Part shown: in pieces, positions 1,189 to 41,100 of the stretch
How positions within the stretch are numbered: the first letter of the stretch is position 1
How the letters are laid out: the number at the start of each line of letters is the position of its first letter
NCBI GenBank assembly: GCA_026026165.1
Contig: JAPEUD010000012.1
Span: forward strand, 248,001-312,000
Direction: 5' to 3'
Length of the DNA: 64,000 nucleotides
DNA from: Sarea resinae
Lineage: Eukaryota
Notes under the pieces: model-generated
The model's database searches: none
Told to the model about the DNA's origin: nothing
Seen by the model: only the letters and a program-made list of their open reading frames with translations
Position numbers and translations under genes: made by a program

Positions 1189-1912
1189 GACAATGGGTCT
1201 CGATGGTCGCGCCCGGCCAGGGGACACGGCATGGCGTGCTACTTTATGTTTACCTTATTATTCCGATGGGTACTGTCCACTAATTTCGCCCATCATTTGG
1301 CCGGCAAGGGAGGATTTTTCGGTCATTTCAAGTTGCGTTGAAGAAAAAGCAGGCGAAGGTGGCTCGGTCAGGAAGTTATGATGGGTGTTGCTACGGGAGT
1401 CTGGAAGGTCGGTACCAAAAGCCAGACTTGAACAAAAGGGTTCCTTATCTACCATTGCCACTGCTATTGCCACTGCTATTGCTCTGGGCCCTGTAGTGAT
1501 TTCAATATAGCTTCTGTCTTTCATCTGGCACATGAGTGCAGTATCTTGAATGCATCCAGGTTGCGAGGAGCACTCTGTAACTCTGGAGTAGATTTGTAAT
1601 GCGTCTTTGCCGTCGATGTTTCGCGTGGTGGCATGATGGGCGGCAATTGGCGGGGTCGAGGGATTGCCTATCGATAAGCTGATAGGTGAGGTCTGACCGC
1701 CGCCGCGACGCAACCCAACGCACCGCAACCCACACACCACCGACCCCCTCGCGGCACCCGAGCCATCCGCAGTGCATCTGATGCGCCATCCTTTGAGATG
1801 ATTGCTCTTGTCGATGCTGCTGCTGTTGCTGCTGCCATCGAGAGTCCGTCCCCGCACTCAAGCCATCTGGAAAACGTCCACTGTCGACCACCAACAGAAG
1901 AGGGCAAAGACC

Positions 1913-36398: not shown

Positions 36399-39106
36399 AT
36401 GGCGTGCGTTCATGTCAACGCACAACGTGAGCCACCAGAGCTTCTCTTTCGGATGCGCATCCCCACATAGCTAACGATATCAGAGCTCCATGCACCAGGA
36501 CCTCATCAGTCTGTCTACCGTGAAGATTGCACGCAGTGTTTTGACTCCATAGTAAGCTCTTCTGTTTTCGAGTCTTTCATACCTACTCAAGGCTGGAACT
36601 TATACAGGGTGTTTTAGGACGATCCTACGGGCCTAGATGTCTGTCTCTTCTGTTTTAATGGAGGTTGCACTGGTGAACGCAAGCACGCTCTGCTTCACTA
36701 CGAATCTACCAAACACCCGCTTGTTTTGAACATTCGGCGAACCAGGAAGAAGATCAAGGTATAAAATGCTGTGATCACACAACGGGGGCTCAGCTTTTGG
36801 CTGTCCAGACTTGTTTCGCTTGCTAATACGATTATTCTCGATTCCATATAGCGCGATGAACCGCCCCAGAAGATGTCTAAGCTTGCTATTGCAGCAGAAA
36901 CTGAGTCAGACCGATACGATACTGAAACGCATATCAGATGCTTTGAATGCAGCCTAGATGACATTGATAGCTCTTCCGGCAAGCTGGCTGCGGTCGTTGA
37001 TGGAGTCATGAATGCTATGACCTTTGCGCGGCAAGAAGAGGTGAAAGCATGGGAGCAGGAAATGACACCTTGCGAGCACACCCTTTGTTTGGAGCAAGAT
37101 CCTTCCAGGCAGATAGAGTCTCAAGGTATTTGCCCGGTGCCCAATTTCCGGTCGTGCTCTATGTACTAACCGCTGAATGATATCTAGATTTGGGTCACTG
37201 CTCTATGTGTGATCTCAAAGAGAACTTATGGCTTTGTCTGCAATGCGGTAACCTTGGCTGTGGCCGTGCCCAATTTGGAGGAGTTGGCGGCAACTCGCAT
37301 GGTCTTGCTCATTCCGATAGCTCTCACCATCCTGTGGCAGTCAAGCTTGGATCAATCACTCCAGAAGGCACAGCAGATATCTATTGCTACGCTTGTAATG
37401 AAGAAAGAACAGATCCAGAGCTTGCTGCTCACCTTGCCCATTGGGGAATCAACATTGCAGAGAGAGAGAAGACAGAGAAAAGCCTAACAGAACTACAGAT
37501 AGAGCAAAACCTGAAATGGGAATTCTCCATGACCACCGAAGATGGAAAAGAGTTGAAACCTCTATTCGGTCACGGTTTGACTGGATTGAAGAATCTTGGC
37601 AACAGCTGTTATCTGAACAGTATACTACAATGCTTATTCTCATTGCCCGTGTTCCAAGACCGCTATTTCTTTCCCCAAAGTACCCCACCCGCTTCCGAGA
37701 TACCGGCCGAAGACCTGGAAACCCAGTTGCGTAAGATCGCAGACGGATTGTTATCTGGCCGATACTCGCATCCAGATTCCGATGTTCTCGTTTCTGAACA
37801 CACGCCAGATTGTCCGCACCAGAAAGGCTTAGCCCCTGCAATGTTCAAGCATTTGATAGGAAGAGGTCATGAAGAATTCTCGACTATGCGGCAACAAGAC
37901 GCCTTCGAGTTGCTTCTTCATGTCTTTAAGCTCATTACTCGCTCTCCGCATCCTGCCCCTTTGAAAGACCCGGTACAGGCGTTCAGCTTTGTTATGGAGC
38001 AGCGCTTACAGTGCCTCAATTGCAAGAAAGTACGCTACCGGAGCGATATACAGGACAACATCTCCATCCCAGTCCCTGTTCGGAGAATCCATGGAACTGA
38101 AGGAGGAAATGAGACCGAAAAGAAGGACACATTTGCAGCTGTCACACTCAAGGAATGTCTTGACATTTTCACTGCTCCCGAACGTGTGGAACTTACCTGC
38201 GCTGCGTGTGCAAGCAAAGACGGTTTCACTAAGCGTTCCTTGTTCAAAACCTTCCCGGAAGTTCTGGCTGTCAACGCCAGACGATTTGAGCTTGTGAATT
38301 GGGTACCAACCAAATTAGACGTTCCTGTCGTGGTTGGCGATGAGCCTTTCCTTCTAGACACATATAAGTCTCCTGGACTCCAAGATAATGAAGAAGTCCT
38401 TCCAGAAGATGCCGATACAGCAGATCGGCCGAGCTTTACTCCCAACGAGCTTGCCATGGGCCAATTGGAGGCTATGGGCTTCCCCCGTGTCCGGTGCGAA
38501 AAAGCCCTCCATGCGACCGGAAATGCGGACGCTGAGGCTGCAATGAACTGGCTCTTCGCACACATAGATGATGACGATATAGACGTGCCCGTTGATCTCG
38601 GTGGAGTGAGCGGTGGCGGTGCTAGCGGAGAAACAGTTGATCAGGAGAAGGTAGAAATGCTTGGAAGCATGGGCTTCCAATCTGCGCAAGCTAGAAAGGC
38701 CCTACTAGAGACCGGAGGAGACGTTGAACGCGCCGTCGAATGGCTCTTCAGCCACCCAGATGACCAAGGCGATTTCGTTCATGATGAAGGCTCCGCCGCC
38801 CAGACAGCCGCGGTGACGAAAGAAGAGAGGACCCTTCCGGGAAGTGAGGCATTGCCGGCTACGTTCCAGCTGCAGTCGATCGTTTGCCACAAGGGAGGCT
38901 CAATCCATGCAGGGTAATTTTCGCTACTCCTTAATCAAAGTATGGTCACTAACTGATCCAGGCACTATGTGGCATTCGTCCGCAAGCTTGTCGGTGGGGA
39001 GGCTGGCGAGTCGTGGGTTTTATTCAACGATGAGAAGGTCGTCAAGGCCGTCGACGTGGATGAGATGAAAAAGTTTGCATATGTGTATTTTTTCAAGCGC
39101 ATCTAA
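36399..39106 (+). CDS. UBP14: Ubiquitin C-terminal hydrolase 14 (isopeptidase T), multi-exon
   Basis: ZnF-UBP (ENLWLCLQCGNLGCGR); Cys box GLKNLGNSCY; QQDAFE; two UBA domains (MGF..A); His box HKGGSIHAG|HYVAF. Confidence 0.96.
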
Positions 39107-39222
39107 GTTACGGCTTTACATTATCGACGGCTCTGTAGAGTAAAGAACGGAATTGGCAATGTTGAATTCCATGACTGGGAGCCGTGACTGTGACTCTACG
39201 ACTAGCTCCGGAGTTAGGAAGG

Positions 39223-39308
39223 CCAATCTGATAACGACGAGGCACGTGATGTGTGCACGTGATGACTAAAATCTGATCTCTGCATCTGATTCGCCCCGGA
39301 TATCTGAT
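39223..39308 (+). promoter_or_regulatory. ISU1 upstream motif cluster: CCAAT/ATCTGATAA, three further ATCTGAT, two CACGTG
   Basis: ATCTGATAA 39226-39234 overlaps CCAAT 39223-39227. ATCTGAT at 39271, 39284 and 39302 (another at 39527). CACGTG at 39243 and 39256. Confidence 0.6.
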
Positions 39309-39608
39309 CGAGTAATCGCCGACGGCCGAGACCGAGGCGAGCACGAGCTTTAATTGGACGACGGCCGAAGTTTCCCTTCTGTTACCTCACCAGGACCGCC
39401 TTCATCACCACTCTCTGCACTGACCGAGTACTAATTGCTACCACACCTATTCCCTCCACATTCCAATTCCTCCTCTACTACAATCCACCAAACCTACTCG
39501 CCACTCTCAAATTCCATCTTCCATCCATCTGATATCTCAATCATCTACTTGAGAATCAACTGTTCACACTCCGAAGCCTCTCTCCCTCTTCCGTCACTTT
39601 CACTCATC

Positions 39609-40429
39609 ATGTTCAGAAGTATCGTCGCGGCGGCACCCCGCTCCGCGGGCAGAATTCTGGCAACCGCCTCACGACCTGCCATCATCTCACCCGTCAATAC
39701 CATCGCTCCCGCTGCCATACAGATAAATGCCAGGAGGAGCTATCACGAAAAAGATAAGTTTTGTCCCATGACAAGCTTGCTTTTGGCAGGCGAACTGCAC
39801 ACGTTACTTATGACGTCGACAACTGCAATTTTGATATCGACCTCTAATCTTCTTATTTTCGCTCTGAGAGCTCTCAGCTAACTTACGATTTACTGCTCGA
39901 CCATTACAGCAAGCCTCGGAATGTTGGTTCGATGGCGAAGACGGATACCGATGTCGGCACGGGCCTGGTCGGTGCTCCCGCCTGTGGCGATGTGATGAAG
40001 CTCCAGATCCGAGTCGACCCCTCGAACAACACCATCAGCGAAGTCAAGTTCAAGACCTTTGGCTGCGGAAGCGCCATCGCGAGTTCGAGTTATCTGACGG
40101 AGTTGGTCCGAGGCATGACTTTGGAGGATGCGGGCAAGATCCGAAACACCGAGATTGCCAAGGAGCTGTGCTTGCCTCCCGTCAAACGTATGTGGATTTC
40201 GCATTCCTTTCGATCCGTTATCTGACCGCTGAGATTCTCTGTACTAACACTTTCTCATCAATCAGTTCACTGCTCCATGCTTGCTGAAGACGCCATCAAA
40301 TCCGCCATCTCCAACTACTACACTAAGAATCCTAAAGCCGCCGTCACCGATCTAGGCGGCAGGAGCGCATCGATGCCCAAAGTGGAAGTGGAGACCGTAA
40401 CAGAGCCTCTCAGTCAAGCTACCGCCTAG
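39609..40429 (+). CDS. ISU1: Mitochondrial Fe-S cluster scaffold Isu1/IscU, 200 aa if the AT-AC intron is spliced
   Basis: Presequence MFRSIVAAAPR; exons 39609-39753, 39894-40187, 40266-40429. Motifs YHEKVLDHYSKPRNVG, GAPACGDVM, FGCGSAIASS, LPPVKLHCSMLAEDA. Confidence 0.95.
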
Positions 40430-41100
40430 ATTCTCTGGGTATCCGGCTTTGTCTTTCTCTTCCACACCAATGTGATTTTTTCCCCTTCCATCAAACCCAA
40501 AAATCTTGCAGTCAACTTCTTTTGTCAATTGGGATGAAGGCTAGGGATTTCTCGATCGGGGAGAGCTGTACGTGGCACCGGCGTGTGTCTTTGTCCCCCC
40601 GGACTTTCGAATTGCGTGTCTGTATTAGCGGTTACGTTTTCTCAAACTCGTTTCTCTCGATCCGTTTGTAAATATGGCAGGCAGTGGAAGGGACTTTCGC
40701 TAATTCTGCTTGACTGAAGCGTGTGTCCTCGAAACCAACAAAAATGGTAAAATCATGCACTTTGCCAATATTCATTATCACGTCGTAGGACTACTTCTAT
40801 GGTGAATAAAGGAACGAAATCTGGAGCTTGGGAAATCTCTGCTCTGAGACTTTTGGTCAGGTGAACTAGAGCTAAAGTGAATTGAAACTTTCGCCATCTG
40901 AATCCCATCATGGACATCATCTATCTGGATGTGATGGGGGGAAAAAAGGAACGAAGGGGGCTCCTAACACCCAAGGCAAACTTTGTTGACCCCTCGGCCC
41001 GGTTCCTTCCCGGTCCCATTCCTCGGGCATCCCCTTCGCTCGACTCGGCCTTGGAAAAAGGGTCCACCAACGCACAAGCCAGGCACCCCAAAAGTTTCCA

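Follow-up and report, generated by a model that had tools for sequence, protein, structure and literature searches.

Type II AT-AC introns are a known and very rare class, with 24 recorded among ~610,000 introns of five species (PMC1557818). U2-type AT-AC introns are described as having a 'very strong /ATAAGT consensus', as against /ATATCCTT in the U12-type (PMC5029451), and a rule for assigning AT-AC introns to one type or the other is given in PMC1557818. Introns of human SCN4A and SCN5A and of human and Drosophila TAF2 (Sheth et al. 2006, PMC1557818) likewise run from AT to AC, begin with /ATAAGT and are kept in orthologues; these are animal genes, whereas the intron described here, the first intron of ISU1, belongs to an essential gene, that of the Fe-S scaffold, has RNA evidence for its junction and is common to several Pezizomycotina lineages. 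Introns engineered to carry a first-base A and a last-base C (Parker and Siliciano 1993 and others, cited in PMC5029451 and PMC1557818) involve the same proposed A-C chemistry, and differ in being laboratory double mutants of reduced efficiency, whereas the ISU1 intron is natural and long-lived. U12-type AT-AC introns have the terminal dinucleotides and the short distance from branch site to 3′ end in common with the ISU1 intron, which differs from them in having neither ATATCCTT nor TCCTTAAC and in belonging to a lineage reported to be without the machinery.

Two fungal systems are also close. The 3′-end intron of Aspergillus telomerase RNA, with AUA(A/C)GU (Kannan et al. 2015, PMC4299874), has the same 5′ hexamer, occurs in the same subphylum and is handled by the major spliceosome. 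Its A at +1 prevents step 2, leaving cleavage as the only outcome, and an A1-to-G change restores splicing; in ISU1 full splicing is seen, presumably due to the AC 3′ end. The nested AT-AC intron of Saccharomyces cerevisiae RPL30 (Gould et al. 2016, PMC5029451) likewise occurs in a fungus without the minor spliceosome; it is used in ~1–2% of mRNAs, sits inside an ordinary intron and has a 5′ site unlike /ATAAGT, whereas the ISU1 intron fits /ATAAGT exactly, and no functional protein would be obtained without its removal. For fungal xylanase genes AT-AC splicing is described as a hypothesis only (PMC1557818), and for Fusarium graminearum one unnamed AT-AC case is mentioned among genes with non-canonical sites (PMC3577648). 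The literature search returned no paper treating AT-AC introns together with ISU1, and the combination of AT-AC and IscU returned only unrelated work; among papers on AT-AC introns in Pezizomycotina or filamentous fungi, mostly represented by their listings, none appears to describe the ISU1 intron. ISU1 intron 1 is thus an addition to a known, very rare class.

ISU1 and the RNA junction of its first intron

The window (the whole 64,000-nt stretch of Sarea resinae DNA that was analysed) encodes on its plus strand, from an ATG at 39609 to a TAG at 40427-29, a mitochondrial-type IscU/Isu1 protein of 200 residues, split over three exons, the coding parts of which add up to 145 + 294 + 164 = 603 nt (Table 1). 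Its identity as the scaffold is evident from the translation, in which exon 2 matches Pfam NifU_N (PF01592) at an E-value of 4.9e-38 (cut-off 22 bits) and the IscU/Isu1 motifs GAPACGD, FGCGSAIASS, LPPVK and HCSMLAED are all present. Among the matches listed, the protein is up to 97% identical to fungal Isu1, and its presequence aligns with fungal Isu1 presequences, the closest of those listed being Dothideomycete entries with 57–59% identity over 48–49 residues. The gene 5′ of ISU1 (plus strand; noted within 38957-39106) terminates at 39106 with ..WVLFNDEKVVKAVDVDEMKKFAYVYFFKRI, an ending that we take to resemble the C-terminus of a ubiquitin-specific protease.

Table 1. Features of the ISU1 gene in the window, and first introns of three related genomic loci in the coordinates of each locus
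Feature	Position	Strand	Description	Basis
5′ UTR (minimum extent)	39475..39608	+		5′ end of X2 RNA contig at 39475
ISU1 exon 1, coding part	39609..39753	+	Presequence to ..RRSYHEK, plus first base (G) of Val codon	Translation
Intron 1	39754..39893	+	140 nt, AT...AC, phase 1	Joint 39753->39894 in runs X2 and X4
5′ splice site of intron 1	39754..39759	+	ATAAGT, the U2-type consensus GTAAGT with A at +1	Sequence; same hexamer in L001 and L004, ATACGT in L006
Candidate GT...AG alternative	39758..39909	+	GTTTTG...CAG; would delete conserved VLDHYS	Sequence
Branch-site motif of intron 1	39877..39882	+	GCTAAC; presumed branch A 39881, 12 nt from intron end	Sequence; CTAAC invariant in three-way alignment
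3′ terminal dinucleotide of intron 1	39892..39893	+	AC (..TTTAC)	RNA joint; same place in L001, L004 and L006
Exon 2	39894..40187	+	294 nt, (V)LDHYSKPRNVG...GAPACGD...FGCGSAIASS...LPPVK, the NifU_N/IscU core	Translation; Pfam PF01592
Intron 2	40188..40265	+	78 nt, canonical GTATGT...TACTAAC...CAG	Joint 40187->40266 'GT..AG' in X2
Exon 3, coding part	40266..40429	+	(L)HCSMLAEDAIK... to TAG 40427-29	Translation
3′ UTR, at least to end of compared stretch	40430..40650	+		X2 contig spanning 40292-40650
L001 intron 1	1394-1498		105 nt, ATAAGT...GCTAAC...CAC|TG	
L004 intron 1	1371-1498		128 nt, ATAAGT...ACTAAC...AAC|TC	
L006 intron 1	1409-1498		90 nt, ATACGT...GCTAAC...GCAC|TT	

Exon 1 ends in ..TAT CAC GAA AAA G (39753) and exon 2 starts with TG CTC GAC CAT TAC (39894), and joining 39753 to 39894 gives ..YHEK-V-LDHYSKPRNVG; the motif YHEK-V-LDHY is restored by the AT...AC join only. 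The original prediction, made from the letters of the window, held that ISU1 appears to need an AT-AC intron at this place, and every statement it made on the sequence of intron 1 holds on re-reading of the letters and translations. These include the statements that the nearest canonical pair (GT 39758 with AG 39908-09), which has a weak donor, would yield YHEKDNKPRN, and that retention of the intron would run into TAA 39879-81 after 90 codons.

Contigs of four sequencing runs (assembled contigs, not raw reads) were aligned to positions 39450-40650 at 80% likeness. X1 is the probable source DNA run, X2 is an RNA library labelled as a wood-decay metatranscriptome with 40% of the sampled words, and X3 and X4 are runs of unrecorded type with small shares of the sampled words; X5 and X6, from the same study as X1, contained next to none of them and were left out of the contig comparison. 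The joint 39753->39894 was found in a contig of X2 and in a contig of X4, each of which 'skips 140, AT..AC' with 0 letters fitting either side, as the original prediction required. The X2 contig (608 nt, depth 32.3) aligns over 279 nt of exon 1 with 4 differences and over the 294 nt of exon 2 with 3 differences, and also skips intron 2 (40187->40266). Lacking both introns, it therefore represents fully spliced mRNA. The X4 contig (223 nt, depth 2.9) aligns over 120 nt with 5 differences and over 100 nt with 2 differences. A more divergent contig of X3 begins to align at 39894, and its preceding letters encode ..QYHEK plus G, so that the junction position is shared by a more distant relative. 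Removal of intron 1 at AT...AC in RNA is thereby confirmed, and as a spliced product was assembled in two runs, the intron does not undergo first-step-only spliceosomal cleavage. At ~1–3% difference from the window, the RNA contigs derive from near relatives or other strains and not certainly from the same isolate.

Only the spliced form of intron 1 was assembled. The GT-AG joint 39757/39910 was not seen in the contigs of X1 to X4, which drop rare variants and so do not show its absence, and no RNA contig spans the interior of intron 1 (nothing in X2 covers 39778-39859), where contigs likewise cannot show absence. Other 'joints' within exon 2 in this comparison came from contigs of other organisms admitted at 80% likeness and were disregarded. 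We also considered a spliceosomal twin intron, in which a nested canonical intron creates GT or AG ends, and rejected it: the last cut would still fall after 39753 and before 39894, beside A and C.

The original prediction had named assembly errors at A39754 and C39893 as a point to check. The probable source reads, assembled separately into an X1 contig of depth 350 with 0 differences over the whole stretch, show the same A and C; as X1 may be the source data, it excludes only an error of the original assembler. X1 also yielded a second contig over 39953-40189, most of exon 2, with 47 differences in 237 nt (~80% identity) at a depth of 4.3 vs 350; it appears to stem from another fungus, present in small amounts in the sample, and not from a paralogue.

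Splice signals in the window and in related loci

The scan of metagenomes with exon 2 kept 80 loci, 6 of them fungal-like, five with 88–95% identity and one, L006, with 67%. Three of the six (L002, L003 and L005) are spliced transcripts with ..GAGAAG|GTTCTCGAC-type K|V junctions. The related genomic loci, L001, L004 and L006, all have an AT...AC intron at the same phase-1 codon position (3/3), each in the form AAAG|AT...AC|T (Table 1). The termini are therefore preserved in orthologues, as the original prediction had proposed to check, with ATACGT as the hexamer in L006. As AT-AC occurs in 4/4 genomic loci read, it is no assembly error and is older than the divergence of the intron sequences. 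In an alignment of the window, L001 and L004, the only parts of intron 1 that are kept are the 5′ hexamer ATAAGT, CTAAC and the terminal AC, and the interiors are unalignable. Intron 2 is GT-AG in all three of these loci.

L006 carries an extra canonical GT-AG intron (within 1499-1870) inside the region that corresponds to exon 2 of the window, where it splits GAPACGD; its low tblastn identity (67%) is due to this extra intron. In-frame AG dinucleotides lie close to the terminal AC in two loci: one in L004 (1499-1506) is 6 nt downstream, where an AT...AG alternative would give K-DHY, and one in L006 (1490-1498) is 6 nt upstream, where it would give K-AALLDHY.

The 5′ splice site ATAAGT (39754-59) fits the U2-type consensus at all positions save +1. 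The putative branch site, GCTAAC at 39877-82, likewise appears to be of the U2 type, with CTAAC present in the window, L001 and L004 and also in L006; CTRAC is the fungal branch-site consensus. No AG lies between the branch site and the terminal AC in the window, L001 or L004. The distance from the branch site to the 3′ end of intron 1 is 11–12 nt in three of the four loci and 21 nt in L006, and short distances of this kind are also found in the canonical intron 2 of L001 and L004. At the 5′ site the U12-type consensus /ATATCCTT is replaced by ATAAGTTT, and the U12-type branch sequence TCCTTAAC, expected 10–15 nt from the 3′ end, is replaced by the motif CAGCTAAC, of which only the distance (12 nt) fits.

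In the literature, Ascomycota are described as having no convincing minor introns, with a 'complete absence' from Dikarya (PMC10639083), and Pezizomycotina are placed among the groups without U12 splicing (PMC2846911). These reports and the letters of the intron together strongly suggest that intron 1 is spliced by the major (U2-dependent) spliceosome. The background drawn upon in the original prediction agrees with the sources as far as their relevant passages go: the signals are not U12-like when ATAAGT and GCTAAC are set against the consensus in PMC5029451, Pezizomycotina are reported to lack minor introns and U12 splicing (PMC10639083, PMC2846911), A..C termini can replace G..G in U2 splicing (PMC1557818), and an AUAAGU-type donor stalls telomerase-RNA splicing after step 1 (PMC4299874).

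The predicted RNA fold of intron 1 is unremarkable (-26.2 kcal/mol, z -0.83; 36 of 200 shuffled sequences do equally well), and a search of 39100-40900 against Rfam at E <= 1 gave 0 matches, so no intron-borne snoRNA or known element was detected. In the predicted fold, UAAGUU of the 5′ splice site (39755-39760) pairs with AACUUA just 3′ of the branch motif (39880-39885). This pairing is not kept in L001 or L004 and is probably fortuitous.

Several motifs were observed upstream of the coding sequence. Five ATCTGAT on the plus strand lie within 308 bp (39226-39533), upstream of or inside the ISU1 5′ UTR, and the whole window contains 23 vs 12.8 expected. The first of the ISU1 cluster is CCAATCTGATAAC, which we take to resemble the extended GATA site of fungal iron repressors beside a CCAAT box, and ATCTGAT itself is linked by us to iron-responsive GATA factors as an assumption. 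The sequence ATCTGATATC occurs 82 nt before the ATG in the window and in L006, and L006 (1233-1277) also has AATCTGATAAC at -48; ATCTGAT was not found upstream of L001 or L004. The cluster was considered as evidence for iron regulation and set aside, being common to the window and L006 but missing in L001 and L004. E-box-like CACGTG palindromes occur upstream of ISU1 in 3/3 loci, at -366 and -353 (39243-39261) in the window, at -180 in L001 and at -146 in L004.

Gene models of Isu1 homologues

The 240 homologues considered here are those listed by two protein searches with exon 2. A gene predictor that reads through AAA-G|AT produces HEKD, and one that reads in frame into ..A-C|TG-CTC-GAC produces xLLDHY in place of KVLDHY, so that an unrecognised intron leaves a trace in the protein. 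Such xLLDHY sequences, with a corrupted N-terminus and the intron read into, were found in 46 of the 240 (19%). The remainder comprised 191 entries with K/R-V-[LIV]-DHY (107 + 84 by search), 2 starting with ML-DHY and 1 starting with VL-DHY. Among the 46, 8 retain HEK followed by D, indicating A at +1; 10 start with M[KR]K[IM][SR], which is the +1 frame of ATG-AAA-AAG|ATA-AGT; and 19 have LT, three residues and LL, which corresponds to CTAAC read in frame, 11 nt from the end of the intron. HEKG, expected from read-through of a GT intron, occurred in 0 of the 240 listed homologues. These mis-annotated proteins fix the first base as A and the last base as C or T, not the full dinucleotides. The expectation in the original prediction that gene predictors would miss the intron is thus borne out by corrupted N-termini in 46 of the 240.

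The aberrant entries that could be named include Dothideomycetes (Saccharata, Didymella twice, Periconia, Alternaria twice, Macroventuria and Curvularia), Geoglossum umbratile (Geoglossomycetes) and Candelina mexicana (Candelariomycetes). Taxonomy was looked up for four named aberrant entries, and the class placement of the remaining genera is our assumption. The named Leotiomycete entries inspected by eye in the list of the first exon-2 search were correctly modelled. When a Sordariomycete Isu1 (P0248, Hypoxylon fragiforme) was used as the query, 0 aberrant entries were found among the 120 listed, and the 83 new ones all had KVLDHY. This full-length query scores truncated models lower, yet a 165-residue fragment was still listed; aberrant models would probably have surfaced in the Sordariomycete-centred search. 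Leotiomycetes and Sordariomycetes make up the NCBI clade 'sordariomyceta', and a single state change at its base would fit this pattern; this is a lead rather than a result, and correct models may also reflect transcript-guided annotation.

Splicing chemistry and persistence of the AT-AC termini

We consider it very probable that intron 1 truly belongs to the type II AT-AC class and is processed by the major spliceosome through an A-C contact, and that it represents an old state kept by a barrier to reversion. AAAG|ATAAGT retains all U1/U6-pairing positions except +1, and its near-perfect complementarity would secure step 1, with CTAAC serving as a normal fungal U2 branch site. The terminal C would then pair non-canonically with the initial A in place of the G-G contact, allowing the second catalytic step, so that ISU1 intron 1 would complete splicing, unlike the AU...AG telomerase-RNA introns stalled after step 1. 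In yeast and human introns, step 2 fails when the first G is changed to A (PMC4299874), and a last-base G-to-C change rescues the first-base G-to-A change in yeast and human, 'although less efficiently' (PMC1557818). The AT-AC state would be old and lineage-restricted. Its persistence may be understood as a neutral double-mutation trap, as reversion of one end only, to GT...AC or AT...AG, would severely impair step 2 in a gene that is essential; if either single reversion is step-2-defective, such a trap explains the conservation, and a regulatory role for intron 1 is not required by the evidence.

A separate question, compatible with this explanation, is where the termini came from. That intron 1 descends from an ancestral U12-type AT-AC intron, which the major spliceosome took over when Dikarya lost the minor one, is possible but rather unlikely. 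The change from GT-AG to AT-AC needs two changes in an essential gene, the indirect signature extends over three classes (Dothideomycetes, Geoglossomycetes and Candelariomycetes), and a U12-type ancestry would account for the AT-AC termini and for the repeated 11–12 nt distance in 3/4 loci. Against it, no U12-like 5′ site or branch motif is left, the distance is 21 nt in L006 and is also short in the canonical second introns of L001 and L004, and the literature search returned no paper linking ISCU to U12-type introns.

Somewhat less credible still is the proposal, raised in the original prediction, that AT-AC is kept by selection as a purposely slow splicing switch, responsive to iron or Fe-S, that sets the Isu1 level. 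AT...AC does persist in lineages whose intron interiors can no longer be aligned, engineered introns with A1 and a last C splice 'less efficiently' (PMC1557818), and the same fungi stall telomerase-RNA splicing with AUAAGU (PMC4299874). However, the alignment of the window, L001 and L004 shows no conserved intronic element beyond the core signals, neither the Rfam search nor the predicted fold (z -0.83) points to a special element, and the correctly modelled entries named as Leotiomycetes and those listed in the Sordariomycete-centred search suggest indirectly that these fungi do without AT-AC; the two-mutation barrier explains the persistence equally well. We hold it just as improbable that the termini are selected such that the A-C contact makes step 2 rate-limiting, as a post-transcriptional throttle, possibly iron- or Fe-S-responsive, that was lost in Leotiomycetes plus Sordariomycetes. 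If that were true, Isu1 output would depend on the second-step and proofreading activity of the spliceosome, and control would be exerted on the entry point of mitochondrial Fe-S assembly.

Removal of intron 1 as a U12-type intron by the minor spliceosome is highly improbable: the terminal dinucleotides and the 12-nt spacing of the branch motif from the 3′ end would agree with it, but the 5′ site is ATAAGT and not ATATCCTT, the branch motif is GCTAAC and not TCCTTAAC (consensus in PMC5029451), and Ascomycota are reported to be without minor introns and U12 splicing (PMC10639083, PMC2846911). That AT and AC are assembly errors, GTAAGT...AG being a perfect canonical intron two base changes away, or that the mRNA uses GT 39758 and AG 39909, can practically be dismissed, as the X1 contig (depth 350, though possibly source data) has the same bases, three independent assemblies of relatives also have AT...AC, the RNA junction fits only 39753/39894, and the GT-AG alternative deletes VLDHYS, which is found in 191 of the 240 listed homologues.

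On the explanation we prefer, a type II AT-AC intron kept by a reversion barrier, ISU1 intron 1 is an obligatory intron of an essential gene, backed by RNA and common to relatives with unalignable interiors. It is a natural test bed for the contact between first and last base in step 2, in fungi that also use AUAAGU without a compensating C to stop telomerase-RNA splicing. It also leads, repeatedly and demonstrably, to wrong gene models of Isu1. The wrong N-termini in 46 of the 240 listed homologues (19%) arise because predictors do not allow AT-AC, and many of the aberrant models lack the mitochondrial presequence and the YHEKV motif, which makes Isu1 entries and localisation predictions unreliable in the affected lineages.
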